Below are positions 25,624 to 57,839 of a stretch of DNA of 64,000 nucleotides, piece by piece; positions within the stretch are counted from its first letter, which is position 1; each line of letters begins with the position of its first letter. The translations under genes were made by a program, and so were the position numbers. The notes below the pieces were generated by a model, which was given only the letters and a program-made list of their open reading frames with translations, was not told the DNA's origin and ran no database searches. Source of the DNA: Escherichia coli (GTDB lineage: Bacteria > Pseudomonadota > Gammaproteobacteria > Enterobacterales > Enterobacteriaceae); assembly GCA_902500205.1 (NCBI GenBank), contig GCA_902500205.1_4868.1; one strand, written 5' to 3'.

Positions 25624-25699
25624 AGGAAAGTGACGCAATTGGTAGCGTACCGGTCTCCAAAACCGGCTGTTTAGAGTTCGAGTCTCTACTTTCCTGCCA
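25624..25699 (+). tRNA. tRNA-Trp (anticodon CCA), 3' CCA encoded
   Basis: Manual cloverleaf: acceptor AGGAAAG/CTTTCCT, D-stem ACGC/GCGT with GG in loop, anticodon stem CCGGT/ACCGG with loop CTCCAAA, T-arm TAGAG-TTCGAGT-CTCTA. Confidence 0.85.
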
Positions 25700-27047: not shown

Positions 27048-27117
27048 GGCTTTGTAGCTCAGGTAGGTAGAGCAGCCTCTTCGAGGAAGGTCGCCGGTTC
27101 GAGACCGGTCAAAGCAA
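27048..27117 (+). pseudogene. tRNA-like element with truncated anticodon arm (degenerate tRNA?)
   Basis: Good acceptor (6 of 7 bp), D-arm GCTC-AGGTAGGTA-GAGC and T-arm GCCGG-TTCGAGA-CCGGT, but the anticodon arm is only CCTC-TTC-GAGG. Confidence 0.3.
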
Positions 27118-28543: not shown

Positions 28544-28564
28544 AGATAGATATTACCTAAGTGA
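28544..28564 (+). promoter_or_regulatory. phage promoter-like motif, class 1 (AGATAGATATTACCTAAGTGA)
   Basis: Conserved motif copy directly after a terminator and upstream of gene 28618. Confidence 0.5.
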
Positions 28565-31508: not shown

Positions 31509-31528
31509 CATAGATATTATCTTCGTGA
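31509..31528 (+). promoter_or_regulatory. phage promoter-like motif, class 1 (CATAGATATTATCTTCGTGA)
   Basis: Conserved motif copy upstream of the 31553..35571 gene array. Confidence 0.5.
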
Positions 31529-39831: not shown

Positions 39832-39849
39832 CAGATATTATCTCTGCGA
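39832..39849 (+). promoter_or_regulatory. phage promoter-like motif, class 1 (CAGATATTATCTCTGCGA)
   Basis: Second tandem copy, about 40 nt upstream of ATG 39890. Confidence 0.45.
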
Positions 39850-41825: not shown

Positions 41826-43777
41826 GTGAGAAAGGTACCAAAATTCTACGGAATATCCGGCCGGTTGGTTAGTCAGGATAACTATTTGTCCGATTTGCAA
41901 ATAGAAGCTGCTGCCAAAGGTATTAAACCACCCACTATTATTAACGATGTCGCCGTTAACGGGGATGCGATCGAGGTTGCTGAACTTATCGATCGCATGG
42001 TACAGAACAGAATCGTTGACGAAGAACTGAACTCTGCACCGATTTGTAGTTTGGATTGTCCGGCACCGATCGCGCATCGTTACAATCTCGGTTGTAAGTG
42101 TCCGACGTGTGGCTATGTTGTAACTGAACATCGAATTGAATCCGATGTCTGGTTACGTGCACCCGATGAAATGGGTAACTTCGTCAACCCACGATTCTGG
42201 GCAATGTTCAATGCTTTCTTTAATAGCAAGTTGAAGAAGTTTGAACGTAACAAGGTCACTATCGAACGCGGTAATGACTTGATGATGTGGATGATTGACC
42301 CGTATTACCGTATAGAAGAACCAGACGGTAAACGCGCACATGCTGTGAAACGTGTATTGGAAGAACATGGTTTCGTTCGTGGCTTGCGCAATCTGGTTGA
42401 TAACCACGTTAGTATCTTTAACATCCTTACCACGCCAGAAGCCTGGAAGGAAATCTTCGCACCTAATCGGCATAACGCCGCTGAAGGTGAACGCTTACGT
42501 TTACAATGGAAGGAGCTATTCGAAACGCAACGCCATGCATTCTTCCCAAGACACTTACCGCTAATCTCCTCTAAGCTTATCGTTACTGAGGAAGGTCGTC
42601 GTGGTGTCATGGTAGACCCAGTGTTCACGGGTGCTATCGATGCGGTGAAAAATATCGCGTTACTTTATACGCGGCGTAAAGCGATCGAACCACGTTTTCT
42701 GATTAGTCGCGCTTTGAAAGCCAACCGTCAGTTAACGTACTTCCACATGGACTTCCGTCGTGAGTCTATGGAAGGTAAACCGGGTGACTATCGTGCGAAA
42801 TTGGGTTCTACCCATATCCCATTCGGTGGTCGTGCAACCATCTCACCTATCTCAGAACCACACGATGCCTGGAAGTTAAAAGCACCATGGCGTTGGATGG
42901 TTGGGTTGATGTCGACCCACATCGAGAACAAACTGCTACGACGGGGTTATTCGTCACGGCAATGTGAACGTATCGTTGCAAAAGCGGCAATGCAGTATGA
43001 CCCGCTTGTAGATGAAATCTTTAAAGAACTGATTCGTGAATCCCCAGGCGGTCTTGGGATCATGGTCATACCGCTACGTAACCCAACGCTGGTACAGTTG
43101 TCTATTCAAACGCTGTACATCGATGAAGTTGTTACCGATGTTAACCAGTGTTCGCTGCGTATCTCTGACCGTGTGATCAAGATGGCTAACGGTTCGAAAA
43201 GAGCCCCATCGGACGGGAAACCTCTGATGCGTATTCTCCTGAAATGCTGGGAAACCCTAAAGCGTATCTACCAGAAATGGGGACGAAAGTCTGAAACAAC
43301 AGATACGATGGCCTACGCTAAACAATACTGCTAACGGTTGTGATAATGGGTAATCAGCAGCGAAGCCTCGTGAGAGGAACGTTCAACGACTATCGCTGAA
43401 ATGCGAGTAGGGGTCCCAGTGGACTTCGAAGTGGGAGAACACCTAAGGCGATAGCTATGGTGAAGATATAGTCTGTGCCTTATCGAGAGATAAGGAGGGT
43501 GTCTTAGCACACCTGCTGTATACGGAAACGGTATACGGTGGACAAACAGGATTTCGATGGCGACCAGTTCCAGGTACGTTTGCCAGTCGATGAAACTGAG
43601 ATGAAGTTGGCGCTCCAATTCCGTCCAGATAACGGCTTTATGTCTTCTACTGATGTGGACCGCGTAGAACACGGCATGGTTTTACATAACGAGCTAATCA
43701 GTATGCAGAACCAGTTCCTTATTGAAGCAGATGAGGATGATGAAGAAGGCATTCCGTTGGAAGCGGTGATGGGCTAA
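41826..43777 (+). CDS. RNA polymerase beta-prime subunit, N-terminal fragment, interrupted by a group I intron (exon 1 from 41826 to about 43166, exon 2 from about 43532 to 43777)
   Basis: Zn-finger-like CSLDC..CKCPTC; NPTLVQLSIQ matches beta-prime APTLHRLGIQ; exon 2 carries DFDGDQFQVRLP (catalytic NADFDGDQ); GTG start with GAGG upstream. Confidence 0.7.
43167..43531 (+). ncRNA. group I self-splicing intron (boundaries approximate)
   Basis: Canonical core elements: Q-like AATCAGCAGC (43351), R GTTCAACGACTA (43381..43392), S AAGATATAGTC (43463..43473, identical to the Tetrahymena S element), P9 hairpin CCTTATC..GATAAGG; 5' exon can end in T and intron in G with frame restored. Confidence 0.7.
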
Positions 43778-43790
43778 TAGGAGTATTGTA

Positions 43791-44372
43791 ATGTGGCTAC
43801 AAGGTAGCACGGTGTGGACGAAACAGACCGAAGGTAGCGGGGCACTCAGCGTATTCAAAGAATCGTTTTCGCTGTCTAGCCTGGCACCCGATCTCGTTGA
43901 CCGTGTAAAAGAACATTGTCAGGACTTAATCTCACTGGAGCGTTTCCGTGAAACATTCAGTACCGCACGTAAATTACGTTATAGCGATGCGGTAGAGATG
44001 GTAAGACAGATCGAAGAGTTGGGTGAATTCCAGTTCGCCAATGCTGCTTTACAGCCATTCCTCGTTGCCATGCCGGAATATCGTAAGTTGTATAATGACG
44101 GTATGGCGACTGGCTATGAGAACGGCTTTTCGCGGTTGGATGTGTTCAAAGGCAATGCGTATATGCGTACCGATGACCACTTCCGCGAAGCAACATCGGG
44201 CATTTCGACGAAGTACGATGAAGATAAGATTTGGCAATGGGCTACCAATGAAGATCGTGCAGTACGACTGAGTCGAATCGATAAAGTGGATATTCAACTT
44301 AACTGGGCACGCATGTCAGCTTTCGACTGGGAAGATGGTGATCCCTGTTCGGAACTTGGCGCGACGTGTTAA
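43791..44372 (+). CDS. hypothetical protein (193 aa)
   Basis: AGGAG upstream of ATG; terminator downstream. Confidence 0.55.
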   Translation: MWLQGSTVWTKQTEGSGALSVFKESFSLSSLAPDLVDRVKEHCQDLISLERFRETFSTARKLRYSDAVEMVRQIEELGEFQFANAALQPFLVAMPEYRKLYNDGMATGYENGFSRLDVFKGNAYMRTDDHFREATSGISTKYDEDKIWQWATNEDRAVRLSRIDKVDIQLNWARMSAFDWEDGDPCSELGATC

Positions 44373-44380
44373 AAAAAGAT

Positions 44381-44407
44381 GGGGCTTCGGCCCCTCTTTT
44401 TTTCTTC
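44381..44407 (+). terminator. intrinsic terminator
   Basis: Hairpin GGGGC-TTCG-GCCCC plus T-run. Confidence 0.7.
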
Positions 44408-44455
44408 ACTGGGGGCTGTATGCAGCATCCTACCTTGAATTTGACAGGAGCTAAC

Positions 44456-44842
44456 ATGATTGCGGTAGGAACCTTATCCACACGTGGCTGGGCACGTACA
44501 CCCCAGGAAAAGGCGCGTGAGTTGATGAACCATTACACCGAGTCTGGCTATAGCCAATCGGTGGTTTATCGTGGGAACATTAAATCACTTGCGTATACGC
44601 AAGCTGTGTTTGCACAAGATCCCGACGGGATGGTTGCCCAGATTAAAATGGATTTGGAGAACCTCTACGGGAACGTATTTCCTGCTGGCGTTGAAGTTGA
44701 AACCAGCTGGGAGTTTTTAAAAGATTCAGATGTGCGTTACCGCATCTTCATTAGTGTCCGTGTGCAAGAAGTTGTAGACGGTGAATGGTACGATGTTGAG
44801 CGGTACGTGGATACCGAGTCGAGTGCGATTGAGGATATGTAA
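44456..44842 (+). CDS. hypothetical protein (start moved to ATG 44456)
   Basis: AGGAG upstream of ATG 44456. Confidence 0.5.
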   Translation: MIAVGTLSTRGWARTPQEKARELMNHYTESGYSQSVVYRGNIKSLAYTQAVFAQDPDGMVAQIKMDLENLYGNVFPAGVEVETSWEFLKDSDVRYRIFISVRVQEVVDGEWYDVERYVDTESSAIEDM

Positions 44843-45516
44843 TGAGCCAGGAACCTACATTTAACGGTGTACCGTTAAGTCAGATGAATGAGCAGATGCG
44901 CTTTGAGTATAACAAACTCAAAGAGATTGAAAAGGATTTGGCGGAAAGCCAGAACGTCTGTAGCGTCTTCACCGAAGCACAGTTCCGACGTCAGGGCTTA
45001 CCACTGTTGTCCGGGATGCTTGATGGTACTTTTAACGAAGAGACCTGGACGGCTTACGTAGGAAGTCCATTTGTACCCCTACAGATTGTGGACGATGCTG
45101 ATAATAGCAAACTGCTATTTACCATCCCCGCTCTGCTGAACACCGGCCGCTCGTTAATCACCGTTGACGGCGAACCTTCCCTCTCTGATGAGACTGAGTA
45201 CATCCGTCGTCAGGTTGATGTGATTGCAACCGTCGGTGAAACCCAGATGTACAAGATGATCGATTACACCCTAACCGGGATCGAAAATATGTCTCTGGCT
45301 GAAAATTCAGTTCGTGCGAAGTACATTATTGACTTGCTGAACTGGATTTTCCGACGCTACGGTGTGGGTGGTCAATTGCCATATCCGGAAGGGTTGGTTG
45401 AATACGTCGATAAAATTACTGGCGGTAAAAACACGGCGACAGCTGCAGAGACTTCGGTGCAAGCCCCAGCTCAAACGCAGCCAATCGTAGGGATCGGTGA
45501 TGGAGAAGATTACTAA
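44842..45516 (+). CDS. hypothetical protein (224 aa)
   Basis: ATGA overlap with the upstream gene. Confidence 0.55.
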   Translation: MSQEPTFNGVPLSQMNEQMRFEYNKLKEIEKDLAESQNVCSVFTEAQFRRQGLPLLSGMLDGTFNEETWTAYVGSPFVPLQIVDDADNSKLLFTIPALLNTGRSLITVDGEPSLSDETEYIRRQVDVIATVGETQMYKMIDYTLTGIENMSLAENSVRAKYIIDLLNWIFRRYGVGGQLPYPEGLVEYVDKITGGKNTATAAETSVQAPAQTQPIVGIGDGEDY

Positions 45517-46648
45517 ACCTCCCAAGAAACCAGAAGGCGTTAAGCGCCTTTTGAACACTAATGATATCCATTTGTTGCATAAACGTGTGCCCACATGGCA
45601 CATCGTGGATGTGATACGTGAGATACTCATTAGCTGCGAAAATACGCTTGACGCCTTTTATATAGCAGGGGATTTATTTGATGATTCCCGACATCTTCGC
45701 CAGGAAGATTCTCAAGAAGCTGTGGGCTTCTTGACGTGGTTGCTCCAGTGGTCTAAGGCCACTAATACCGCCGTTCGCATCGTTGAGGGAACACCGTCCC
45801 ATGACCACGGCCAGTCCAAAATAGTTGAGTCGCTGAACATCAGTATAGGCGCAGACTGTTTGTATTTGGCAGGGATCGGGATATTTTACGATCCGGCTCT
45901 CGATGCGATGGTAGGTTGGGTGCAGGACGAATATAAAGCTGCTGGCGTCGATGAAATTAATGCTGCTGCCACTGAGGCAGAAATGGCAGAACTGATGGCG
46001 ACACGAGGCCTGGAGAAGTTAGACTTTATCTTCATGCACGGCTGCTTCCAGTTTCAACTCCCTGTCGAGTCCCCTCGTTCTTTCCACGAGGAGTTCTGGT
46101 TGCCGAGAGTCAAGCACCTGATATTTATCGGGCATGACCATCGACCCAAGGAATTAGACAAGATAAGAGTTGTAGGTAGTCCTGAGCGACTATCTCAAGG
46201 TGAAGAGGAGGACAAAGGCGTAGCTCTTGTCGATTTCACCGATACGGTTGCCAGGGATTATTTCCTGGTTAACCCACGCGCGTGCCCGCAGAAAAAGATT
46301 CGGGCACAGGAAGACTTTGATGCGCAGTTAGCAGCTTGTCTTTCTGCATTAGAATACATCGACAATCATCCTTCGTCCGCTATTGGACGATTTGAAGTCG
46401 AGTATTACGCAGGTTCACCGATGGCCGAATATGTTAGTCGGTGGAAAAAAGAATACACGTTCCACATTTCTGGAGAACGTGTGCGCTCCTCTGAAGAAGA
46501 GGAGTTGTTAGTGAAGAGTTTTTCGAACGAAGCCCCAGTGTACGAAAAACCTACTCCTGAGAACTTCGAACGGTTGGTTCTCGAAGAGCTAACATCAGTG
46601 AAGTACGACCCTGATGTTGTTACTGCAATCATTAGGAAAATAGAATGA
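45500..46648 (+). CDS. SbcD/Mre11-like calcineurin-type phosphoesterase (recombination/repair nuclease)
   Basis: Ordered metallophosphatase motifs: NDIHL (D.H), GDLFDD (GD..D), GTPSHD (GNHD-like), FMHGC, GHDHRP. Confidence 0.65.
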   Translation: MEKITKPPKKPEGVKRLLNTNDIHLLHKRVPTWHIVDVIREILISCENTLDAFYIAGDLFDDSRHLRQEDSQEAVGFLTWLLQWSKATNTAVRIVEGTPSHDHGQSKIVESLNISIGADCLYLAGIGIFYDPALDAMVGWVQDEYKAAGVDEINAAATEAEMAELMATRGLEKLDFIFMHGCFQFQLPVESPRSFHEEFWLPRVKHLIFIGHDHRPKELDKIRVVGSPERLSQGEEEDKGVALVDFTDTVARDYFLVNPRACPQKKIRAQEDFDAQLAACLSALEYIDNHPSSAIGRFEVEYYAGSPMAEYVSRWKKEYTFHISGERVRSSEEEELLVKSFSNEAPVYEKPTPENFERLVLEELTSVKYDPDVVTAIIRKIE

Positions 46649-47481
46649 ATCCAATCAGTGTTGATCGCACTTTCGGGTTCTATTCAGTGTCAATCGCCAG
46701 TTCGCTGGCGTTTGAAGGTCTGCTGCATACCGGCGAATACGCCGACTGGAAAGGCGAATTGCCTATCCATTCCTATCAGGAAATATACCTGAATCTCCGG
46801 ACATTGTTCCGTAACGCCTTCTATGCGTTTGAAGAGAATAGAGAACGGTTAACACCCGACGTGATGCTAACATCGATTGAAGAAGATATTAATAATCTTA
46901 CGGCTACCGCGAGAGCGGTAGCCCCTTCGGTGTTATGCGTTCCGTACCTTTGTAGCTATCGTAGCGCTAACAAAGTGTTTCCCGAAGCCTCGTTCAAAAA
47001 CATCGCAGGCGGGCAGGATAAGATGACGCCAAACCAGCTGCACTATAATGCACTGGAACACGACACCTTAAAAATGTACGGTGAGAAACACGAAAATGAC
47101 TTCCGTCAATTCGATGTTTTCCCAGAGGGTAGCCGCGACACACTGTTACTGACCCACATGCCAGCTGATCTCCTGGCACGTAAAGATTTCCCTAAACTGG
47201 GTTTGTTGGAATCACACACCGGTAAAGTGAAAACGCAACTGGAGTGGTACACCAAACTTAACGGGAAACCCCAACATATTCCGTTTAACAAAGCGTTCCT
47301 GACGTTGTTTGGCGACGGGATAATGTTTTCACCCCTCGATCGCAAAACGCGTGGGGTGGTGTTAAAAACCGCAGAGAAGTACAGCTGGAAACAGGATACC
47401 ACAATGGACCGTATTTATAACTGTCTAAAACTGGTGAATGAGCCATTTGTAATTGAACTGCTCCGCAGGCTTATGAAGTAA
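46645..47481 (+). CDS. hypothetical protein (278 aa)
   Basis: ATGA overlap with the nuclease gene. Confidence 0.55.
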   Translation: MNPISVDRTFGFYSVSIASSLAFEGLLHTGEYADWKGELPIHSYQEIYLNLRTLFRNAFYAFEENRERLTPDVMLTSIEEDINNLTATARAVAPSVLCVPYLCSYRSANKVFPEASFKNIAGGQDKMTPNQLHYNALEHDTLKMYGEKHENDFRQFDVFPEGSRDTLLLTHMPADLLARKDFPKLGLLESHTGKVKTQLEWYTKLNGKPQHIPFNKAFLTLFGDGIMFSPLDRKTRGVVLKTAEKYSWKQDTTMDRIYNCLKLVNEPFVIELLRRLMK

Positions 47482-47546
47482 GTTAAAATTTACGTTAGTG
47501 GGACATCATGTGTGAACCACTAGACTGCTTTTCCGAAAAGGATGAA

Positions 47547-48206
47547 ATGATGATTAACCAAGAAATTTTCAAAGACAAATGGCTTTACCCGCAGACCGAA
47601 CCGGATCAGCAAAACCGTACGCGTAAACTCAACATCGAACCGAATGATTTCAACGGCGATGTTGAAACTTTGAAGTTTAGCTACTCCTTTGGTAAGGGCG
47701 AAGGTCTCTATTTCTCTGCGCCGATTACGGTTTGCCGTACCATTATCGAAGCTCTGCAGGATTGTCTGCGTAAGAGCGAAAAGAGTATGCTGAAGTTTAC
47801 TAACGAAAACGGCAACAAACCGCCCGTTAGTCTGATTGTTGGCCGTGAAGACAACCTGGTACCGTTCATCGCTATTGCCGGTGAAATCCAGGGCGTTGGT
47901 GCCCGCCAGAAGAAGTTCTACTTCTCCTACCCGAAAGGTTTCCGTATTTTCCGCGACGGCCAGCAGGTTTCTGATTTAGAACTTGCCGAGCGCTGCGCAC
48001 GTGCGTTTATCACTAACTTCGAGAAGTTCTTACAGAACCTGGAAGAGAAATATAAGCCGCGTGAATTCCAGCAAGGTGGTGGTAGCTTCGGTCGTGGCGG
48101 ATACGGCGGTGGCCAGGGTGGTGGTCAGCGTAGCGGCGGCGGTTATCAACAGCAGCAACAATCTGCACCTCCAGCAACCACTGATTCTTACGACGAATTC
48201 CTCTAA
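47547..48206 (+). CDS. possible single-stranded DNA-binding protein (Gly/Gln-rich tail ending DSYDEFL)
   Basis: C-terminal GGGSFGRGGYGGGQGGGQRSGGGYQQQQQ tract followed by an acidic/aromatic tip, as in SSB-type proteins; AAAGGA upstream; beside the nuclease gene. Confidence 0.3.
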   Translation: MMINQEIFKDKWLYPQTEPDQQNRTRKLNIEPNDFNGDVETLKFSYSFGKGEGLYFSAPITVCRTIIEALQDCLRKSEKSMLKFTNENGNKPPVSLIVGREDNLVPFIAIAGEIQGVGARQKKFYFSYPKGFRIFRDGQQVSDLELAERCARAFITNFEKFLQNLEEKYKPREFQQGGGSFGRGGYGGGQGGGQRSGGGYQQQQQSAPPATTDSYDEFL

Positions 48207-48292
48207 GAAACAAAATAAAAAATACGCCCAAGGGAAACCTTGGGCTATTAACGCTTATGCGTGGTCCTGCAACACACACTGTAAGAAGATTT

Positions 48293-48313
48293 AGATAGAT
48301 ATTATCTCAGTGC
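48293..48313 (+). promoter_or_regulatory. phage promoter-like motif, class 1 (TAGATAGATATTATCTCAGTG)
   Basis: Conserved motif copy about 30 nt upstream of ATG 48342. Confidence 0.5.
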
Positions 48314-48341
48314 AATCGACTATTCGCGGAGTTCAACTATA

Positions 48342-49976
48342 ATGAAAATTATGAAGATTAAAGACCGGATGACAATCGAGCATCGTGGTCAAGAGGTCAC
48401 ATTTATTGGCTTACGTTATCGGAAGGATAACAACGCACCCGACTACATCACTGTTAAAGGTAAACAGATTGCACGCGACAACATTCTCTTCATGGAATTA
48501 CAACGCGTGTGGGATTATTTAACGCCAGACGAACAAGATGAACTGTTCATGGCGTATCTGATGCTGGACGAGCTGGCAAACGAATCGACGGAAACGCAGC
48601 GTAAGCACATGCCGAAGATTGTGCAGACGATTGCGAAGTTCCACAAGGCCGAAGTGTATCGTAAGCTGTATCCCATCGATAAGCTGTGGATTCCGCAGAA
48701 CATGGAAGATACGCACGATGAAATGAACAGTAATTATCCGGAAGCGATGACGTACATTCGTCCGGACTATTACGAGTTGTTGATACTGGTCCTGATGATT
48801 AAACCGTATATTCCGGTGTTCCTCACCATGGGGACGTTCCCGATAGGTAAGAACTTGCCAATCGAAACACATCGGAAAATGGTGTACAATCTGACATACT
48901 GTCTGGAGATGCTTCAAGACACAGAAGTCATGTCTTTACCTGCTATTCCGAAACTGCGTGGGTTCCTACAGACAGTGATGGAAAAGGTAGAAAAAGAACT
49001 GGCAAACAAAGGTACGAACAGCACCAGTTTGTCGGTACTGGCTACGGTGCGGGGCTATGGCACGGATATGATGGAAGATTATATCCTGGCGTATGCTATT
49101 ATTAAATTGTTGGCTGTCCGTGAAGTCGGTGGTGAATTACCGATTGAAATCATGGTTAACAACAATATCGTCACCGGCATGTATTTTCTGGTTAAACAAG
49201 AGATTGAAACAGGTTTTGCAAACAAAATCTCTAACCAGCCGGTGCTGTTAAAAGCGCATCCGGAAAGTGTGGTATTCAATGGCGAAAAGGGTAAGATAAA
49301 CGCCATGGATTTGGTGCAGGCACGTTCTCCTGCACAGATGAAAGAATACGTCCGTACCGAGTACGTATTTAAAGAATACCGCTCTTTCTTGAAAACAATG
49401 CGTCTGGATAATGCCGCTCCAGCAGATGTTAAGTTATTGATTGATTCGCAACTGGCAACACATGACGGTCCTGTCTATACGTTGCACGAATGGTTAGTCG
49501 CATTAGCACTCCATCGTAGCGTGCATTATAAGACGTATACTGAATGTGGACCAGAAGCGTTTCGCTACGGTATGGCGTTGGCACAGGCAACTTATCTCAA
49601 TTATGGAATGTATGACGTTGCGCAACTGTTAAGTTGCAATATGGTGCGTTCTGAGATGTCTGCCGGTTATGCAGCCGACCCAATTCGATCTGAACTCAAA
49701 GCAGATTTAGATAGATATTATCTTCAGGAGTATCGCAACCCGCGTAATCTCGAACCGCAATCTACACCACGGGAATCACTGACCTTGTTACACAAGGATC
49801 ACATCAACCCGTATCTGTTCCATCTCAGGGCTACACCAGAAGCAGCTGCGCTGCTGAAGTGTGAGACGGATCAGCCAAACTATATACCTCACTTGTCACT
49901 GCACAATAGCCTGGCGGAGTTTATGGTGTTGAATGCACGTCGCAAGTTAGAAGAAGTTGAATGGTTTAATTCTTAA
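48342..49976 (+). CDS. hypothetical protein (544 aa)
   Basis: Promoter motif upstream; long ORF. Confidence 0.6.
   Translation: MKIMKIKDRMTIEHRGQEVTFIGLRYRKDNNAPDYITVKGKQIARDNILFMELQRVWDYLTPDEQDELFMAYLMLDELANESTETQRKHMPKIVQTIAKFHKAEVYRKLYPIDKLWIPQNMEDTHDEMNSNYPEAMTYIRPDYYELLILVLMIKPYIPVFLTMGTFPIGKNLPIETHRKMVYNLTYCLEMLQDTEVMSLPAIPKLRGFLQTVMEKVEKELANKGTNSTSLSVLATVRGYGTDMMEDYILAYAIIKLLAVREVGGELPIEIMVNNNIVTGMYFLVKQEIETGFANKISNQPVLLKAHPESVVFNGEKGKINAMDLVQARSPAQMKEYVRTEYVFKEYRSFLKTMRLDNAAPADVKLLIDSQLATHDGPVYTLHEWLVALALHRSVHYKTYTECGPEAFRYGMALAQATYLNYGMYDVAQLLSCNMVRSEMSAGYAADPIRSELKADLDRYYLQEYRNPRNLEPQSTPRESLTLLHKDHINPYLFHLRATPEAAALLKCETDQPNYIPHLSLHNSLAEFMVLNARRKLEEVEWFNS
49709..49729 (+). promoter_or_regulatory. 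phage promoter-like motif, class 1, intragenic (TAGATAGATATTATCTTCAGG)
   Basis: Full-length motif copy inside the 3' end of CDS 48342..49976, about 260 nt upstream of gene 49989. Confidence 0.4.
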
Positions 49977-49988
49977 GGAGTATTTAAA

Positions 49989-51689
49989 ATGCAGCTTGTA
50001 AATCTACTGATGTATCCGGTCTACGATGTTCCAGAGCAAGTTCGTCGCCGCATCGGCTTTAACGCATCGACGGGTGCACTGGATGACTTAGCAGCAGCGG
50101 TTGAACTGGGCGGGGAAAAAGCTGTGGGAACACAGCAGTATCAAGAAGCATTATCTGCCATCGTGGGCTTCGATGGCACCCAGAATGGTTTTGAGCGTCC
50201 ATTCATCAACGTGTCCGATGATGACAATCGTCCTGTACAGTTCCAATGGGAATCACGTGATACCGGTATCTTTAACTTCGTGGCGGTGTTTATTGCTAAA
50301 CCTCTGAATGCAACACGCACTCAGGAAACGCAATACATCGTCTCCGGTTATACCAGTCAGGCAGAAACCAGCCTGGGTAGCTTGCTGCCGGACGATATGG
50401 TGTTGTACATTAACGACATCTACGGCTTACAGGCAACGTATACACACGATGCCCTGGGCGGCAAAACATTGAACCCAGACTCATTCCGTCTACTGGATAA
50501 CTACGTTTTATCGAAAGCGTTGTCTGTTGAAGGTCAAACAGAAAGTACGGTAGATATCATTTCGATCGCGAAAGCGGCGGACATGGTAAAACGTATTGAA
50601 ATGAATAGCGGTGAGAAGTTCGTCCCAACGAGCGACTCTGTGCTATCCGCAACCAGTAGCTCTGCACCACAGTTGATGGTATCCCAACTCCAGCGTCCAG
50701 AAAACTACGTATCTGCCATCAGTAATGCGTATCTGGCAAGCTCTGGGGTAGATACCGAACTCGGTAGCGTGGAAAGCTTCTTTGCAGGTAATAACTCCAT
50801 CGGCGTTGAATCTGAATTGAAGCAACGTGGTGTTATCCGTAACTACAGCAACCACGAACTGATTGCTGCGATGCGTCAAGCACTCCAGAACGGGATGTCT
50901 GATGTATCTGGCGGCTGGAAAGCAACCAGTAAGGCGACGTTCCGTTTGGCTGATTTGCGTAATGCGATTGTCAACCCAATGCGGTTGGATGAATGTATCC
51001 GTGAATCGCTGGCGCTGGCAAGTCGCCGTGGGTTGGGTGCAGGGCTGGTTAACCAAACCGACCACTGGATTGGACGTAATGGCTTCTCCACGCAGGGTAG
51101 TCTAGTTGCGTATGATCTGGCTATGTCTATCGGGCCGATTATGTCACGTAACCTGATTGGTGAAGTGAGCTTTGTCTTTGATAACCGCAACACAGATATC
51201 ATGATAGAGCCTACGCTGGAAGTTATTCCTAACTCAGTCAGCAGCATCACGCACCATCAGTTACCTGCTGCTTTAGGTCGTCGTTTCTTGCAGAACATGA
51301 AAGAAGCGATGGTTCAGGTTACTAAACATAACCATATTCGCTGCCACATGCTGGTCACCGCATTGTTGGGGACCGTTACTCGTATTGAAATCCGTGTCGA
51401 CGACGAACCGCTGGAATATTACACCTACGCGTCGTTTATGCAATTCCGTCTCCATACCGGCAACACCACCGATCTCAAATACGTTGGTGAGCTGGCACAG
51501 AACACCGCAACGCTGTTGAAAGCCGTGGAAGAAGGTTATACAGAATTCGAGAAAGGCCAAGGCCGGGGTCGAATGCTATCTAACATTCCAACTAACACAG
51601 GTGGCTTAGATCCTCTTGGAGGTCTTGACCTGGGTGGTGGCTTAGGCGGTATAGGCGGAAACGGACTCGGCAACGGTCTCATTGATTAA
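49989..51689 (+). CDS. hypothetical protein with Gly-rich low-complexity C-terminal tail (566 aa)
   Basis: Conserved leader TAAGGAGTATTTAAAATG; C-terminus GGLDPLGGLDLGGGLGGIGGNGLGNGL. Confidence 0.6.
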   Translation: MQLVNLLMYPVYDVPEQVRRRIGFNASTGALDDLAAAVELGGEKAVGTQQYQEALSAIVGFDGTQNGFERPFINVSDDDNRPVQFQWESRDTGIFNFVAVFIAKPLNATRTQETQYIVSGYTSQAETSLGSLLPDDMVLYINDIYGLQATYTHDALGGKTLNPDSFRLLDNYVLSKALSVEGQTESTVDIISIAKAADMVKRIEMNSGEKFVPTSDSVLSATSSSAPQLMVSQLQRPENYVSAISNAYLASSGVDTELGSVESFFAGNNSIGVESELKQRGVIRNYSNHELIAAMRQALQNGMSDVSGGWKATSKATFRLADLRNAIVNPMRLDECIRESLALASRRGLGAGLVNQTDHWIGRNGFSTQGSLVAYDLAMSIGPIMSRNLIGEVSFVFDNRNTDIMIEPTLEVIPNSVSSITHHQLPAALGRRFLQNMKEAMVQVTKHNHIRCHMLVTALLGTVTRIEIRVDDEPLEYYTYASFMQFRLHTGNTTDLKYVGELAQNTATLLKAVEEGYTEFEKGQGRGRMLSNIPTNTGGLDPLGGLDLGGGLGGIGGNGLGNGLID

Positions 51690-51701
51690 GGATTATTAAC
51701 C

Positions 51702-53069
51702 ATGAAATTGATTGAATTCTACCGTTCGTTTCTGACCTCGCTCGGATACGGATTCGAAGGTGACATGTTGACCATCGATGATGGTCATCCGGCAATGTTC
51801 ACCTACAACAAAGTGAAGCGCCGCTTGGTGCTTCCAACTGCAGCGATGATTAAGCGTGGGTTGGAAGATGACGAAGGTAGTGAATGTCATGCGTTCCACC
51901 CACTGTGTGAATCGGTACTGGCTGGCGAATCTGGAACGATTCGTTTCCTGAAGAAAGCCATCAGCGCGAACCTCTTCCTGAAAAGCTTCGAGTTAATCGA
52001 TGCGATTTTGGAAACAGCAGCCGAAGGAAAAAATATCCGTCTGGCATCGTACAAGAAGTTTTTAAGCGATGTGGTTTGTGCTGACCTGAAAGATCCAACG
52101 ATGGATAAGAAACTGGTTCAGAGCTGGCACGCAGTGAAGAACTACGTTTACGGGTTGCTGGAAGAAGATAAAAAGACAAAGATCACCAGTATCTTCATCT
52201 CCAGCGATATGACCATTGAAGGTATCAAATATATCCGCGTGGCGAACTACAAACACATGTTTGAAGAAGAGTCACTGGATGGTACGGCAACATTCTTCGG
52301 TGCCAAGCTCCAGCGTAAGCAGGATAAGGTCATTATCTTTAACCTGCTAACTGCAGTGTTTGGTTGGTATCCTTCGGTTACGGGTTCTAACGATCCGCGT
52401 CCGTACTTCGGTTCTTTGGCACGCGGTTGGGCACAATACGTGACCAACTACAATCAAGTGGTTCGTGGTCTGCGTGACCACACTCCACTGCGTCCGTTAG
52501 AAGAAGAATGGATTGGCCAACTGGATAACATGAGCGTTTATGATAACGTTATCCAAACTCTGCCGTATAATACCGGCCCACGTAACGATCAGGCAACAGA
52601 CACCACCGCAACGGATTTCCGTATCGGGCGTACACCTGCCGGTACAAAGCCGGTCGTTGCTTTAGCTTCTCAACAAGCTCCGCAGGAAAATCTTGATCTC
52701 AACGATCCGGTAAACTATTTCCGTGCGAAGAAAGCGCAACAGGCGTCTTCAGCTAATAGCTTCAATGCGTTAGCACCGAAGATTCAGGAAGCGCTGCGTG
52801 AGAACAACGGCCATTTACCGAAAGGGACAATTAAAGAACTGTCTCTCGGTGAAGCGCTGCGTGGTAATGCGGTGACGAAAGAAAGTGGTCTGGGTTCTGG
52901 TTTGCTGGGAAGTAGTAATAATCTCTTGGGGGGTAGCACGCAGTTGGGCGGCGGTAGCACCAACCTCTTAGGAGGGAGTAGTGACGTGTTAGGTGGTCTG
53001 GGTGGTTTAGGTGGCGGAAGTAGCAGCATTTTAGGCAACCTACCATTCTCATCAGCTAATTTACGTTAA
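51702..53069 (+). CDS. hypothetical protein with Gly/Ser/Leu-rich low-complexity C-terminal tail (455 aa)
   Basis: C-terminal repeats of LLGG/LGG over the last 80 residues or so; terminator downstream. Confidence 0.6.
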   Translation: MKLIEFYRSFLTSLGYGFEGDMLTIDDGHPAMFTYNKVKRRLVLPTAAMIKRGLEDDEGSECHAFHPLCESVLAGESGTIRFLKKAISANLFLKSFELIDAILETAAEGKNIRLASYKKFLSDVVCADLKDPTMDKKLVQSWHAVKNYVYGLLEEDKKTKITSIFISSDMTIEGIKYIRVANYKHMFEEESLDGTATFFGAKLQRKQDKVIIFNLLTAVFGWYPSVTGSNDPRPYFGSLARGWAQYVTNYNQVVRGLRDHTPLRPLEEEWIGQLDNMSVYDNVIQTLPYNTGPRNDQATDTTATDFRIGRTPAGTKPVVALASQQAPQENLDLNDPVNYFRAKKAQQASSANSFNALAPKIQEALRENNGHLPKGTIKELSLGEALRGNAVTKESGLGSGLLGSSNNLLGGSTQLGGGSTNLLGGSSDVLGGLGGLGGGSSSILGNLPFSSANLR

Positions 53070-53079
53070 GCGTTAGAAA

Positions 53080-53107
53080 GAAGGGACTGGGCGTCCCTTC
53101 TTTTTTT
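53080..53107. terminator. intrinsic terminator (probably bidirectional)
   Basis: Hairpin GAAGGGAC-TGGG-CGTCCCTTC plus T-run. Confidence 0.7.
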
Positions 53108-53430
53108 CAAGATTCTACGATAGTCGATAAGATGTTACTTACCACACCGACACTAGGAACCAATAAGGTTCTTATCTCTGGCGTGAAATCAAACGGAGTA
53201 GAAATTCCGTTCATTAACATCATCGGATAAATAATACTATTATCGTACTGTTTGAGACGACAGTACGCGTAGAAACTGTGTACCTCTGGGTAGGCATATT
53301 TTGGGTCAACAACTTCTTCTGTAGTATCTGGGTGTTTGCGAAGGAAGTCTGTATAGTCATGCAACACCTTATACTTGGTCGAATCAGGCGAAGGTATTAT
53401 TTCGGATAAGGTAGCAAATTTATCTAGCAT
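53107..53430 (-). CDS. hypothetical protein (107 aa)
   Basis: AGGAGA upstream of the minus-strand ATG 53430. Confidence 0.55.
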   Translation of the reverse strand: MLDKFATLSEIIPSPDSTKYKVLHDYTDFLRKHPDTTEEVVDPKYAYPEVHSFYAYCRLKQYDNSIIYPMMLMNGISTPFDFTPEIRTLLVPSVGVVSNILSTIVES

Positions 53431-53450
53431 CGTCTCTCCTTAAAATAAAA

Positions 53451-53474
53451 CAGATAGATATTATCTTACCGAGG
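53451..53474 (+). promoter_or_regulatory. phage promoter-like motif, class 1 (CAGATAGATATTATCTTACCGAGG)
   Basis: Conserved motif copy about 25 nt upstream of the RNAP beta gene start. Confidence 0.5.
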
Positions 53475-53496
53475 TAACCAAAAGGAGCATTTACGA

Positions 53497-55734
53497 ATGA
53501 AAACACCAGTCGAACTCATGTCAAGCGTTGCTGACCGTGAGGTGAATATCACTGGCGTATCTGGGGCACGTGCCTCAATGGTGGGTGGACATATGAAGTC
53601 GGCGGTACCACTGGACAATCCAGATCCGACTATCCATTTTACCGGCGCTGATGTGAACTACCACGATTATTGTTTTAACGATATCGTGGAAGATAGTGGT
53701 ACTGTGTGCAGTTACACAACCAAAGAAGGTGTTACTCGTGCAGCTGTTTTTGCACGCTATGGTCGTGAAGGGGATCACGATCCGCTCCAGCATGTTATCT
53801 TCTTCACGCGCGCAGATTTAACCAACCAGCGCAAAGTGATGATTGATGTAATCGATATTAAGTATTACACCAACCACGATAACATTTTCTCGTCTAAGAA
53901 AGAGGCTACTGGGAAACTTCAGGCGTTGCTGCGCGGACAGACGCAGCACCTGGAAAAAGATGAAATGCTTACCGTACTGCCGGCACAGAAAGACGGTGAG
54001 TTTGTCGATGGGGTCAATCTGCACACTGTGACAATGTCGCACCCAGACATTATCGAGGACTCGTACACCATCTCCGAAACTGCAGCGAAGGCGATGCACG
54101 CTTATGGTTTGCGTGCAATCGACTTTACCTTGCGCGACGACGAGTACCTGCTTGATACGTATGGGACAACGGGTATTGATGGCGTTCGTCGGCCACAGTA
54201 CCTGCCCAATAAAGGACAGGCAATTCGCGATGATGGGTTGGTTATAGCCGCGCGTCGTTTCGATAAGCTGTGGGCGGCTATTGACTCGCACGTGGGCGAA
54301 ACACAACATATCTCTCCGCACTTCGACCGTTGTGAGTATGTTGACGCTGACCCTGAGCATTACAAAGCGCGTCAGGCCGGCGACTTTGAAAAGATGGAAC
54401 GTACTGGTTCTCGTGTCGTTGATATTCAGGTATGGCGGGACGAAACCAAATGCGATCGTGGTGTTAACAATATCGCATGTACCGAAGAGAACAAACGCGA
54501 GTTAGATCACTACGCGAACGCTTTGAAACGTTTTTACAATGATATCGTGCGGTTCTATTTTGCGATGTCCAAAGACAAGAACATTGTCTGGTCACCGAAA
54601 GCGTTTGAGATCCTTGACAAGGCGTTCTGTTCTGAGACGTATGAAGTCTATAACGACTTCCGTGAAGAGATTGGTCGTGAATACGATGAAGCCATGCGCA
54701 AAGGCGAGTATAACCGTTCTGCTGATAAGAACGTGTTAAACAAACTGGCGCAGCCGGTTCAGCGTGGTCTCTGGGACCCAATTGGTAGTTACACGATACG
54801 CATCGTGGTACGTTATCCAATCCCAGTTACCGTCTCATCGAAAATCACCGACCGTTCAGGTACAAAAGGTATCGTGGGTGCAGTGCGGCCTGATGAAGAA
54901 ATGCCGATTAACGAGTTCGGAGAACGTGTGCATGTCATTCGTTCCATGAACGCCGTAATTCGTCGTTCGACTTATGCTGCGCTGTTCCACATGTATTGGT
55001 CTGCTGCATCCGAGCAGTTGAAGATGCGGTTGAAACCTTTACTTGCCGCCAACCAGGTTGACGAAGCCTGGGAAATCCTGATGGACTATATCGATCGCTA
55101 TAACCCACGCTGGACATTCTATCTCAATGCCAGTCACCCGGATACTGGGTCACGTCTGGAACTCTTTAAAGAGATTTACGACTTCACGATTCGTATCTGG
55201 CTTCCCCACGAATTGAATGCTACCCAGGTAGAAATCTGCCGTGCTCTAGGCGAGTATGCACCACGCAAGTCTAAGCTACTGATTACTAACTATCAGGGTG
55301 AGAAAGAGTGGACGAAGAACCAGTTCTACGTCGGCATGGTAGAGACTCTGCGCCTGGATAAAACCGGTCGTGAGTTCTCCAGTATCTCGTCGATGTACAC
55401 GAACTATTTGGGTTGTATTGATGCATCCAACCAAGGACGTGGTTCATATCCGATTAACCTGAAAGGGTTGAAGTGGGGTGGTCCTTCCGAGCAGCGTCTT
55501 ACCGACGGCTTTGGTCCGGGCAACTTCCCCGAAACTCATGACCGCGCTAATAACCCTGCGGTACACCGTGCGATCGTAACGGGGCTGTATAACTCGCCAA
55601 CACCAACCAATCCGGGGGTGCTGGTCGATCGTAAGAAACTGCCAATGGGTGATTCGCAGATTGACAGGATGATACGTAACATCCATCGCTGTGAAGGTTT
55701 TGAATTAGTGCGTCCAATTCGGGAGGATAAATAA
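53497..55734 (+). CDS. RNA polymerase beta subunit, C-terminal portion (split-gene form)
   Basis: DRSGTKGIVGAVRPDEEMPINEFGERVHVIRSMN matches bacterial beta GRHGNKGVISKI.PIEDMPYDENG..PSRMN; EDSYTISE and LDKTGREFSSIS match further beta blocks. Confidence 0.75.
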   Translation: MKTPVELMSSVADREVNITGVSGARASMVGGHMKSAVPLDNPDPTIHFTGADVNYHDYCFNDIVEDSGTVCSYTTKEGVTRAAVFARYGREGDHDPLQHVIFFTRADLTNQRKVMIDVIDIKYYTNHDNIFSSKKEATGKLQALLRGQTQHLEKDEMLTVLPAQKDGEFVDGVNLHTVTMSHPDIIEDSYTISETAAKAMHAYGLRAIDFTLRDDEYLLDTYGTTGIDGVRRPQYLPNKGQAIRDDGLVIAARRFDKLWAAIDSHVGETQHISPHFDRCEYVDADPEHYKARQAGDFEKMERTGSRVVDIQVWRDETKCDRGVNNIACTEENKRELDHYANALKRFYNDIVRFYFAMSKDKNIVWSPKAFEILDKAFCSETYEVYNDFREEIGREYDEAMRKGEYNRSADKNVLNKLAQPVQRGLWDPIGSYTIRIVVRYPIPVTVSSKITDRSGTKGIVGAVRPDEEMPINEFGERVHVIRSMNAVIRRSTYAALFHMYWSAASEQLKMRLKPLLAANQVDEAWEILMDYIDRYNPRWTFYLNASHPDTGSRLELFKEIYDFTIRIWLPHELNATQVEICRALGEYAPRKSKLLITNYQGEKEWTKNQFYVGMVETLRLDKTGREFSSISSMYTNYLGCIDASNQGRGSYPINLKGLKWGGPSEQRLTDGFGPGNFPETHDRANNPAVHRAIVTGLYNSPTPTNPGVLVDRKKLPMGDSQIDRMIRNIHRCEGFELVRPIREDK

Positions 55735-57839
55735 TGGCGGGTCGTTCTGTACACGTACGTGATTTGCGTATGCTTAACTCTGATCAGGTGTGGAAACTAC
55801 GCGGGCGTTATTACGTGACGTTTGACGATGGTAAGTCGTTGGAAATGTCTAGTCGCCACATCAAACTCAGCTGGCCGTATTGGGGTGTGTCGCGTCTGTA
55901 TCCGCAGGTGCCCACTCCATCGACCATGGCGTATCGTCCAGGTCAGGTAGCAACAGATGACCTGCATCTGGACTTTATGTCGGAAGCAGCGGTACTGGCC
56001 CGTAAAGCAGGTGTCGACCTTGCTGAAACGCGTTATATCTTGAGTCAACATGTCTACGCCGATGCGTTCAACATGACAGTGAAGAACTTGCTGTCCTATT
56101 GTACGACAATCGACTTTGATACGATGATGGAGATCTACGACCACCCGAACTTCGAACTCATCCGTCAGTGGGAAGTGCAATACCCTACTGGCTACGATGA
56201 AGATGGTCGGGATATGGTTGAAGAAGCGTACAAGCTTATCGAGAAAATCTTCAAAGACCCTGCGCTACGGTATAACCCGGTCGTGATGTCGGTACTGGAC
56301 GGTACTGTGAAGATGAACCAGGTACTGCAAGCCTTCGTGCGTGGTAAAACGTCAGAAATTGACTCACGTGTATACACCAATCAGGTGTGGGAAGGCTTCT
56401 TTACCGGAATGCACTCGGTTATTTCGCGTTTGAAAGAATCCGGTGCAACTTCACGTTCCCACTTGTACAACACTGACAAGATTGCCGAAGCAGAATACGC
56501 CTCACGTAAACTGCAGTTGGCAGCAAACGTACTGATGTATTTCACGTACGACGACTGCGGTACAACTCACGCACACCGCTACACGTTTAAGGATACGCAG
56601 CTGGATGAGCGTGCCTATAAAGCGATGGTGGGGATGCGTTATCGTTTAGAAGGCGATAATGGTCCGTGGTTGAGATTTGAGAAAGGTGGATACGCAGACC
56701 TGGTTGGCAAACCGCTGGTCTTCCGTAGTGCCATGACCTGTAAAGAGATGGCGAATCAGTCCATCTGTGCGACCTGTATGGGGGATTTGATTTATAACCT
56801 CTCTGAAGGTACGTCACCAGGTCACCTGGCGTCCACGTCCATCTCGGAAAAGGGTACACAGGGAATTCTCTCTACCAAGCACCTTGACTTCTTGCGTTAT
56901 CTGCTCAACCTGGTACTCACCCCACGTATGCGTGAGTATATGACCGAATACAAACATAACTCTCTGAAAGGGTTGTGCTTGCTACCAAAACCACAGCGTG
57001 GTAATTGGTCAGAATACGAGTTGGTTGTTACCGACAAAGTTTATTCGGAGCTGAGCCAGATTGCGTACCATGAAGATCTCGATGCAATTGATGAAACGGC
57101 ATTACCAGAAATCACCGACTTAACTTTCCAACGTCGTTTAGAAGATGGGCAGATAATCGCTGCGGATTCTATCGATGTGCGAATGGGTGTTTGTGGGAAC
57201 TTCTCTAAACCGTTCCTGCACTACTTCTTGAAACAACGAGCGAACATTCGTATCGAGAAGAAGACGGTAGAAATCCCCTTAAAAGGATGGAACCCGAAAC
57301 ACCCGGTCCTGGTCTACACCAACCGTTCTGAATCGATGGCAGAATTCGTAGCCGGCTTAGAAACCAAGCTCCGTTCGATTGCAGCTGATAAGAACGAAGA
57401 CATTGTGGAAATCATCAACACAGCCTCGACTGTGAAGCTGAACAAGAAACAAGGTCGTGTGAAACCGGTGACGTTGGTTGAAATGGGTGGTGCTACAGAG
57501 AAACAGTGTACTTATGCGTTGATGGACACGTTTAAGTATATCCAGCGTAAGCTGAGTGGTATACCGATGACGCACATTGCGATTATGTTGGCGATATCTC
57601 GCGTAGAGTCACCAACCAATCCGTTCCCGGCGGTAGGATTTGACAGTGAAGATTCTACTAATGCTACAGGGAAACGGTTTGTCGATCACAACACGCTCAT
57701 TAGTTTGCGCTCGGCAATTCCGATGTTGTTGTTTGAAGGACAGCAGGGGAACATCGATCGCGTTGGTTTTTATACCGAGTACAAAATCCCGGCATCGTTG
57801 TACGATGACCTAGGAGCCGCTGTGGTAATTGAGTTGTAA
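55734..57839 (+). CDS. RNA polymerase beta-prime subunit, C-terminal portion (split-gene form)
   Basis: ICATCMGDLIYNLSEGTSPGHLASTSISEKGTQGILSTKHL matches beta-prime CAHCYGRDL...SIGEPGTQLTMRTFH; ATGG overlap with the beta gene. Confidence 0.7.
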   Translation: MAGRSVHVRDLRMLNSDQVWKLRGRYYVTFDDGKSLEMSSRHIKLSWPYWGVSRLYPQVPTPSTMAYRPGQVATDDLHLDFMSEAAVLARKAGVDLAETRYILSQHVYADAFNMTVKNLLSYCTTIDFDTMMEIYDHPNFELIRQWEVQYPTGYDEDGRDMVEEAYKLIEKIFKDPALRYNPVVMSVLDGTVKMNQVLQAFVRGKTSEIDSRVYTNQVWEGFFTGMHSVISRLKESGATSRSHLYNTDKIAEAEYASRKLQLAANVLMYFTYDDCGTTHAHRYTFKDTQLDERAYKAMVGMRYRLEGDNGPWLRFEKGGYADLVGKPLVFRSAMTCKEMANQSICATCMGDLIYNLSEGTSPGHLASTSISEKGTQGILSTKHLDFLRYLLNLVLTPRMREYMTEYKHNSLKGLCLLPKPQRGNWSEYELVVTDKVYSELSQIAYHEDLDAIDETALPEITDLTFQRRLEDGQIIAADSIDVRMGVCGNFSKPFLHYFLKQRANIRIEKKTVEIPLKGWNPKHPVLVYTNRSESMAEFVAGLETKLRSIAADKNEDIVEIINTASTVKLNKKQGRVKPVTLVEMGGATEKQCTYALMDTFKYIQRKLSGIPMTHIAIMLAISRVESPTNPFPAVGFDSEDSTNATGKRFVDHNTLISLRSAIPMLLFEGQQGNIDRVGFYTEYKIPASLYDDLGAAVVIEL

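Follow-up and report, generated by a model that had tools for sequence, protein, structure and literature searches.

Nucleus-forming jumbo phages encode multisubunit RNA polymerases (RNAPs) whose large subunits are split over several genes, and the best described of these is the non-virion RNAP (nvRNAP) of phiKZ, which consists of gp55, gp68, gp71-73, gp74 and gp123 (PDB 7OGP and 7OGR; PMC4666361, PMC8287921). In this enzyme gp71-73 is defined as beta-C (PMC4666361) and gp68 as a sigma-like fifth subunit (PMC8287921). Introns also reside in such genomes: those of phiKZ are associated with gp55/gp56, gp72 and gp179/gp180 (PMC11512511), and in PhiPA3 the intron endonuclease gp210, encoded in a virion RNAP (vRNAP) gene, interferes with co-infecting phiKZ (Science 2024, PMC11620839; review PMC12908238). 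A further relative, SPN3US, is used as a genetic model with amber mutants (PMC5105663). Here we analyze a 64,000-nt stretch of DNA (hereafter the window) from the Escherichia coli assembly GCA_902500205.1 (contig GCA_902500205.1_4868.1), and report that it very probably encodes four of the five nvRNAP subunits of an SPN3US-like jumbo phage, with the gene for the N-terminal part of beta-prime (beta-prime-N) split by a group I intron.

Compared over its whole length, the window shares 97-99% nucleotide identity with vB_EcoM_EC001, phage 1252, JN03 and SPN3US, and by its sequence it is part of the genome of an SPN3US-like Seoulvirus, a giant phage of Salmonella and E. coli. A first inspection that saw only the letters (the sequence-only reading) had placed it in a phiKZ-like jumbo phage on account of its fragmented beta and beta-prime genes, a placement borne out by those genes together with 98-99% identity to Seoulvirus genomes of the SPN3US group. 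The homologues of gp23, gp30, gp34 and gp35 of SPN3US (JN641803) follow one another in identical order at 98% nucleotide identity, and the order of the RNAP genes is also that of phiKZ, gp54-55 ... 68 ... 71-73-74. Split RNAP genes are ordinary here, being already known biology for the SPN3US phage group; the sequence-only reading did not mention the fourth nvRNAP gene (48342..49976) or the group I intron inside beta-prime-N.

That reading had taken beta-prime-N to be one gene at 41826..43777. Its outer limits (a GTG start and the stop), its zinc finger (CSLDC...CKCPTC) and its DFDGD motif are all present, but it is not a single continuous open reading frame (ORF). Instead, a first exon on the plus strand (41826..43193; 456 codons, including the zinc-finger cysteines and ending in ATG GCT AAC GGT, M-A-N-G) is followed by a 356-nt group I intron with no ORF (43194..43549, plus strand) and by a second exon (43550..43777, plus strand; 75 codons and a stop) that opens with GAT TTC GAT GGC GAC (DFDGD). 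When read without splicing, the ORF at 41826..43334 (502 aa) loses its frame after 43193 and runs through about 47 junk codons (...KMANGSKRAPSDGKPLMRILL...) to a stop, while DFDGD is encoded in another frame, in an ORF of 79 codons with a GTG start (43538..43777). Alignment to SPN3US shows that the insert in the window is exactly 356 nt, and joining 41826..43193 to 43550..43777 gives a protein of 531 aa, of which 530 are identical to the uninterrupted SPN3US gp23. The spliced product reads ...RVIKMANG|DFDGDQFQV..., restoring the catalytic motif N-G|D-F-D-G-D; the predicted junction in the spliced RNA is ...GCUAACGGU|GAUUUCGAU... and the predicted junction peptide is MANGDFDGDQFQVR (...IKMANGDFDGDQFQVR...).

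A scan of the whole window with Rfam returned one group I intron match (RF00028), at 43174..43495, covering model positions 1-253 of 253 with 69.4 bits (E 1.6e-15; the gathering score of this family is 50 bits). The helices can be placed as P1 (43191-43195/43201-43205), P2 (43207-43229), P3 (43234-40/43433-39), P4 (43245-50/43354-59), P6 (43360-82), P7 (43388-93/43468-73), P8 (43440-62), P9 (43478-95), P9.1 (43497-514) and P9.2 (43515-39). In P1, GGU|UC pairs with GAGCC around a GAAAA loop, and U43193, the last exon base, forms a wobble pair with G43203. By inspection, the same helix is kept by compensatory changes in related introns: GGU|AA/UUGCC in SaP7, GCU|AA/UUGGC in ZK_P1 and phiKp_32, and GAU|AG/CUGUC in Vibrio phage 2 TSL-2019. 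The P1 drawn by the Rfam alignment (CAAGAUGGC with GCCCCAUCG, three mismatches) was rejected because it would put the splice site in the loop, and the 5-bp P1 with its U·G pair and covariation was taken in its place.

To the fold itself, we brought an alignment of the cores of six homologous introns (window, SaP7, ZK_P1, Vibrio phage 2 TSL-2019, EL and phiKZ). Unguided, RNAalifold recovered P2, P3, P4, an extended P5, P6, P8, P9, P9.1 and P9.2, with compensatory changes in 36 of its 70 pairs. When the P7 pseudoknot is added to the named structure (70 pairs in 16 helices), pairing holds in 93.1% of cells versus 36-47% when the 3' partners are slid, and 37 pairs are changed on both sides versus 10-12 in the slid controls; none of 500 shuffles reached any of the observed covariation measures. 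P7 has changes from U-A to C-G in SaP7 and EL. The minimum free energy (MFE) of the window intron has a z-score of -4.07, and the unconstrained MFE fold includes P1 and P2. Two hairpins between P7 and P3' (UCGC-UGAAAU-GCGA and GGUCC-CAGU-GGACU), both of which covary in SaP7 and ZK_P1, look on inspection like P7.1 and P7.2 of subgroup IA.

The intron is reminiscent of the subgroup IA introns of phages (T4 td, nrdB and sunY type) in these P7.1/P7.2-like hairpins, in the conserved J8/7-P7 block AAGAUAUAGUC and in interrupting the gene of an essential enzyme at a codon of the active site. The ORFs of the T4 introns sit in the P6 or P9 loops; unlike them, relatives of the window intron carry their ORF in the loop of P1. 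No endonuclease ORF was found within the 356 nt of the window intron, where the P1 loop is reduced to GAAAA, and the only ORFs to overlap it are the tail translated when exon 1 is read through, the ORF that runs into exon 2 from GTG 43538 and a spurious minus-strand ORF.

The boundaries are fixed by three features at once. The intron ends in ...ACAAACAG, with its terminal G (omega G) at 43549, and 43194..43549 is the only choice that leaves a U at -1, a terminal G and an intact N-G-D; the neighboring choices 43193..43548 and 43192..43547 were rejected, as they lose the terminal G and/or the -1 U, or change Gly to Glu. The aspartates of DFDGD bind the catalytic Mg2+. The intron must be removed efficiently, because six viable isolates carry it inside the codons of this Mg2+-binding loop, which is universally conserved: the DxDGD motif is described as both invariant and catalytic (PMC8287921). 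Ribozyme architecture and restored reading frame are properties of the DNA as deposited, and self-splicing catalysis is what they predict. In the beta-prime-N pre-mRNA, the intron would separate the Gly codon of N-G-D-F-D-G-D from its first Asp codon and would fold into the P1-P9.2 ribozyme; free guanosine would then attack after U43193, wobble-paired to G43203 in P1, and the freed 5' exon would attack after the terminal G43549, joining GGU to GAU and recreating the Mg2+-binding loop. Nucleus-forming phages separate transcription from translation (PMC12908238), which, as a speculation, would give introns time to fold and might allow them to be tolerated in the most essential genes.

Could beta-prime-N instead consist of two independent polypeptides of 502 and 79 aa, with the 356 nt as an intergenic spacer? 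The GenBank records of EC001, Lh1B and SaP7 present the gene in this way, as 'beta subunit 1' and 'beta subunit 2', splits are tolerated in jumbo-phage RNAPs, and the GTG at 43538 does start an ORF containing DFDGD. However, we consider this very unlikely. The supposed spacer has the score of a full group I intron and contains helices backed by covariation, its exact excision yields 530/531 identity to an uninterrupted SPN3US protein, and the tail of the 502-aa ORF consists of about 47 out-of-frame residues translated from ribozyme sequence. By inspection, no Shine-Dalgarno-like sequence is visible upstream of the GTG at 43538, and a break between Gly and Asp in the Mg2+-binding loop would part the strands of the catalytic double-psi beta-barrel (DPBB). 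The phiKZ nvRNAP subunit deposited in 7OGP, for its part, fuses PHIKZ055 and PHIKZ056.1 over the homologous insert. Fragmented database assemblies of some related SPFM phages might rather suggest that the frame break comes from faulty sequencing or assembly, or that the gene is a decaying pseudogene. This we regard as extremely unlikely: six isolates, obtained independently by different laboratories and from different hosts, have the same 356-nt insert at 98.3-100% identity, the exons are still strongly conserved, and the product is the catalytic subunit of a polymerase that in phiKZ is responsible for late-gene transcription.

An intron-interrupted beta-prime-N is thus the reading we retain, and its spliced product belongs with three further nvRNAP genes on the plus strand. 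In searches of PDB sequences with phmmer, spliced beta-prime-N (homologous to SPN3US gp23 and phiKZ gp55) matched best to 7ogp_A, the fusion of PHIKZ055 and PHIKZ056.1 (E 1.4e-38, query residues 52-494); its NGDFDGDQ lies opposite the phiKZ NADFDGDQ, an alignment that holds only once the intron is removed, and dozens of bacterial beta-prime chains also match near DFDGD. The ORFs that had been proposed as beta and as the C-terminal part of beta-prime (beta-prime-C) are present exactly as proposed (53497..55734, 745 aa, and 55734..57839, 701 aa), and the stop codon of the first shares one base with the ATG of the second. The former, homologous to SPN3US gp34 and phiKZ gp71-73, matched best to 7ogp_C (phiKZ gp71-73; E 1.8e-29) and also to the AR9 nvRNAP chain 7s00_C, to Pfam Rpb2_6 (24.1 bits, above the cut-off of 23.4) and to the PHROG RNAP family phrog_3295 (E 6e-268). 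The piece of beta, which had been left unspecified, is the C-terminal half, because the product aligns to residues 801-926 of a 1104-aa cyanobacterial beta and to Rpb2 domain 6. The latter, homologous to SPN3US gp35, which is named nvRNAP beta-prime (PMC5105663), and to phiKZ gp74, the subunit type with the bridge helix and trigger loop, matched best to 7ogp_D (phiKZ gp74; E 8.9e-39, query residues 8-548) and to another PHROG RNAP family, phrog_3015 (E 6e-241). The beta-prime-C motif that had been read in it is found, SICATCMGDL...ASTSISEKGTQGILSTKH (CATCMGDL...TSISEKGTQ), with the CATC...SISEKGTQ block opposite CMTC...SMGDKITS of phiKZ; SISEKGTQ is the trigger-loop block. Pfam returned the expected domains weakly (Rpb1_2 at 21.1 bits, Rpb1_5 at 17.0 bits). 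These profile searches and alignments to phiKZ, which the sequence-only reading had proposed as its check, dispose of the possibility that its three genes bear no significant similarity to RNAP.

The fourth gene, 48342..49976, is a homologue of the sigma-like gp68, the fifth nvRNAP subunit type, and corresponds to SPN3US gp30. Its product matched best to 7ogp_B (phiKZ gp68), over about 390 residues (E 1.8e-6; query 47-436, chain 41-414), and it matched phrog_3209 with E 1e-159. Three large ORFs lie between the RNAP genes, and this one alone matched gp68: those at 49989..51689 and 51702..53069, checked as candidates for the fifth subunit, had no match in the PDB sequences. We identified no beta-N subunit (a gp123 homologue) in the window ORFs examined; in SPN3US the nvRNAP beta-N is gp77 (PMC5105663), whose gene lies outside the window. 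The enzyme of the window resembles that of phiKZ in four homologous subunits, a beta-prime split after the DPBB domain, the DFDGD catalytic loop, a sigma-like fifth subunit and gene order. It differs in that beta-prime-N of phiKZ is only about 27% identical in amino acids (tblastn), and in that phiKZ gp71-73 is itself intron-split while the beta-C gene of the window is continuous. Next to beta-prime-N on its upstream side, where phiKZ and Vibrio phage 2 TSL-2019 have the gene for their nuclear-shell protein (chimallin), the window has an ORF of 617 aa (39890..41743). Its place makes it a candidate chimallin, but the searches did not bear this out: there was no PDB match, no Pfam family, a BLASTP E value of 0.67 against phiKZ gp54, and a single PHROG match, to a family of unknown function (phrog_8316).

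The sequence-only reading had left open whether its three genes belong to a virion or a non-virion enzyme. Both enzymes are composed of split beta and beta-prime pieces, and the phage RNAP chains matched in the PDB are all non-virion (phiKZ, 7s00/7s01) with none labelled virion, so an nvRNAP could be the best match by default. That the genes encode the vRNAP, or a mix of the two enzymes, is nevertheless highly improbable. With spliced beta-prime-N as the tblastn query, PHIKZ055 is the sole locus found in phiKZ, the gene order agrees with the phiKZ nvRNAP cluster, and between the RNAP genes lies the homologue of gp68, a subunit that in phiKZ was purified with the non-virion enzyme alone (PMC4666361). 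In SPN3US, the counterparts of the three genes are gp23, gp34 and gp35 and not the virion subunits: the SPN3US literature assigns gp35 to the nvRNAP and gp240, gp241, gp218, gp42 and gp244 to the virion enzyme, and SPN3US virion proteomics is reported to lack the three proteins (PMC5105663). Moreover, homologues of the vRNAP subunits gp241 and gp244 are separate genes of the window, in other PHROG families. The gp241 homologue (1..849) is cut by the start of the window, leaving its C-terminal 282 aa (phrog_3148, RNAP beta, E 3e-125), and this fragment (1..846) has no PDB match; the gp244 homologue is a separate ORF at 2672..3400, gp244 being the C-terminal-most vRNAP beta-prime piece in SPN3US (PMC5105663). 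All three genes thus resolve to the nvRNAP, as orthologues of phiKZ gp55, gp71-73 and gp74.

The RNAP genes also share an AT-rich motif, AGATATTATCT, with five exact plus-strand copies in the window (at 31512, 39833, 48297, 49713 and 53456) and near-copies at 28548 and 39740; with up to one mismatch there are 13 matches versus 0.69 expected, and no shuffle reaches 13. The copies share the longer context (c)AGAT-AGATATTATCT-nnGTG, and most lie 30-110 nt upstream of plus-strand start codons: 39833..39843 is 47 nt upstream of the ATG at 39890, 48297..48307 is 35 nt upstream of the ATG at 48342, and 53456..53466 is 31 nt upstream of the ATG at 53497, within a 66-nt spacer that includes GATAGATATTATCT. 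This last copy is the promoter motif that had been seen in front of 53497, and it does precede that gene. Early promoters of jumbo phages are described as having, around -10, a conserved AT-rich stretch of some 10 nt that the virion RNAP reads (PMC7598289), and by analogy AGATAGATATTATCT is probably an early promoter for the injected virion RNAP. The beta-prime-N gene has no motif copy of its own and is probably co-transcribed with its upstream gene from the copy at 39833. On the model of phiKZ and AR9, early genes would be read from these AGATAGATATTATCT promoters by the injected virion RNAP, after which the five subunits would form an enzyme that, as in phiKZ, transcribes the middle and late genes of the phage without the host RNAP.

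Several points weigh against this account as a whole. P1 has only 5 bp, and the covariation test uses six sequences, from which the structure was itself partly derived. That splicing takes place in the window phage is what we infer from its sequence. The Pfam scores of beta-prime-N and beta-prime-C fall under the gathering thresholds, and the gp68 match is modest (E 1.8e-6). As to the promoters, the motif copy at 49713 falls within the gp68-like coding region, and the early-promoter label is carried over from phiKZ, AR9 and 201phi2-1.

Searching phage genomes with 41826..43790 by megablast (98-99% identity to SPN3US-group phages) revealed three alleles at the insertion site within one species, Seoulvirus SPN3US: intron-less, with an ORF-less intron, or with a divergent HNH-bearing intron. 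Six records align to the query without a break; in SPN3US and many others the match consists of two abutting segments that make up 82% of it; an extra length of about 1 kb is present at the insertion site in SaP7 and Proteus phage 7. The ORF-less intron is found in six independently sequenced isolates at 98.3% identity or more. SPN3US differs from them by its uninterrupted gp23, which lacks the 356-nt intron and keeps the empty site GCAAATGGA|GATTTCGATGG, and the gene is likewise uninterrupted in phiEaH2, CR5 and Erwinia phages, closer relatives that fall outside the SPN3US species. The P1 loop of SaP7 and Proteus phage 7 holds a 288-aa ORF with an HNH_3 and two NUMOD1 domains, matching PHROG HNH endonuclease families. 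The window intron did not arise recently from the SaP7 intron by deletion, because their ribozyme parts are 78.6% identical when the exons are about 98% identical. Both intron-bearing alleles end exon 1 with GCT AAC GGT, compared with the synonymous GCA AAT GGA of SPN3US; the change from GGA to GGT creates the U needed at -1, and the codon changes also supply P1 pairing, a pattern expected from co-conversion or from selection for P1. The ORF-less intron appears to be a resident selfish element that is no longer autonomously mobile. Several of the SPFM assemblies (LR535901-LR535917) align to the window in nothing longer than short fragments, dozens of them (13% coverage in 40 pieces), which suggests that they are scrambled or of low quality, so that the exact census of intron alleles is uncertain.

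We found no description of this intron in the literature on SPN3US-like phages or Seoulvirus, and the SPN3US papers name introns only for the virion RNAP genes of phiKZ and 201phi2-1. The intron belongs to a known kind, with relatives at or beside the same codons in phiKZ and EL, and it is mis-annotated in public records, in which the two exons appear as separate or truncated coding sequences. In at least six deposited Seoulvirus genomes the catalytic nvRNAP subunit is annotated as two genes or as a truncated gene because the intron was not recognized, and as a consequence gene counts, core-genome analyses and protein databases inherit a junk-tailed beta-prime-N and a spurious 79-aa 'subunit'.

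Introns that score as Rfam group I introns interrupt the DFDGD codons in all seven of the phages compared. The phiKZ intron lies at N|ADFDGD (1372 nt, with an HNH ORF, gp56, in the P1 loop); the window intron (356 nt, ORF-less) and that of SaP7 (1404 nt, HNH ORF in the P1 loop) lie at NG|DFDGD; those of EL (1417 nt, with an ORF), Raoultella phage VB_ZK_P1 (365 nt, ORF-less) and Klebsiella phage phiKp_32 (1430 nt, with an ORF) lie at NA|DFDGD; and that of Vibrio phage 2 TSL-2019 (392 nt, ORF-less) lies at NAD|FDGD. The phiKZ and EL introns share the gene, the motif and an alignable core with the window intron (Rfam scores of 75.6 bits for phiKZ and 54.9 bits for EL), the EL splice site falling at the homologous codon boundary and the phiKZ site one codon upstream. 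They differ in size and content, at about 1.4 kb with an endonuclease ORF in the P1 loop, whereas the P1 loop of the window intron has 5 nt and no ORF. The EL ORF is annotated as a 'putative replication protein' and that of phiKZ as an HNH endonuclease, annotations that we take as given.

In Raoultella phage VB_ZK_P1 (around 2848..3168) and, at the same positions, in phiKp_32, the group I intron is followed by a 12-nt micro-exon, GATTTTGACGGT (DFDG), and then by a second non-coding insert of 309 nt that precedes GATACC (D-T), with a U at -1 and a 3'-terminal G. This insert is structured (z-score of -3.74) and had no Rfam match at E<=1; its partial relatives are in unannotated regions of Aeromonas jumbo phages.

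Counting this second insert, a stretch of 15 nt is interrupted at four points. phiKZ has its insertion at N|A and Vibrio phage 2 TSL-2019 at NAD|F; the N(A/G)|D position is occupied in the window, in SaP7, in EL and in the Raoultella and Klebsiella phages, and these Raoultella and Klebsiella phages have their second insert at DFDG|D. Such independent insertions clustered in the DFDGD codons across genera illustrate how selfish introns target invariant active-site sequence. We propose only tentatively, considering it somewhat doubtful, that throughout the nucleus-forming jumbo phages the NxDFDGD codons of beta-prime-N are a recurrent hotspot of homing that is active to this day; if so, intron invasion and endonuclease loss would be ongoing, possibly with endonuclease-mediated interference between co-infecting Seoulviruses, as with PhiPA3 gp210 and phiKZ. 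PhiPA3 and the window each have a group I intron in a jumbo-phage RNAP subunit gene, an intron that some related phages have and others lack; but that of PhiPA3 lies in a virion RNAP gene and carries an active endonuclease, and that of the window lies in an nvRNAP gene and carries none. It cannot itself attack intron-less relatives, because it has no endonuclease; the allele of SaP7 and Proteus phage 7, judging from its HNH_3/NUMOD1 ORF, could. With three natural alleles, this one species is a ready system in which to study the homing of introns, the loss of their endonuclease and the competition that they mediate in the nucleus-forming phages of enterobacteria.

Elsewhere in the window, a tRNA-Trp (CCA) lies at 25624..25699 (Rfam 63.6 bits, with ARAGORN in agreement), and a weak second Rfam tRNA match (36.4 bits), not called by ARAGORN, at 27048..27117. 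A 107-aa gene at 53107..53430, SPN3US gp33, stands alone on the minus strand; together with a GC-rich hairpin followed by a T-run, GAAGGGACTGGGCGTCCCTTCTTTTTTT, at 53083..53107, it divides the upstream plus-strand genes from the beta-C/beta-prime-C pair. Downstream of this pair, the ORF at 57886..60630, a homologue of the helicase-like SPN3US gp36, contains a 346-aa intein (58336..59373) that has LAGLIDADG_3 and Hom_end_hint domains, begins with Cys1 and ends in His-Asn followed by Thr+1. The intein sits in the Walker A loop (GRGK|T) and is absent from SPN3US and many relatives (GAGKS), its host extein is 92% identical to SPN3US versus about 98% elsewhere, and it is also present in five of the six isolates with the ORF-less intron.

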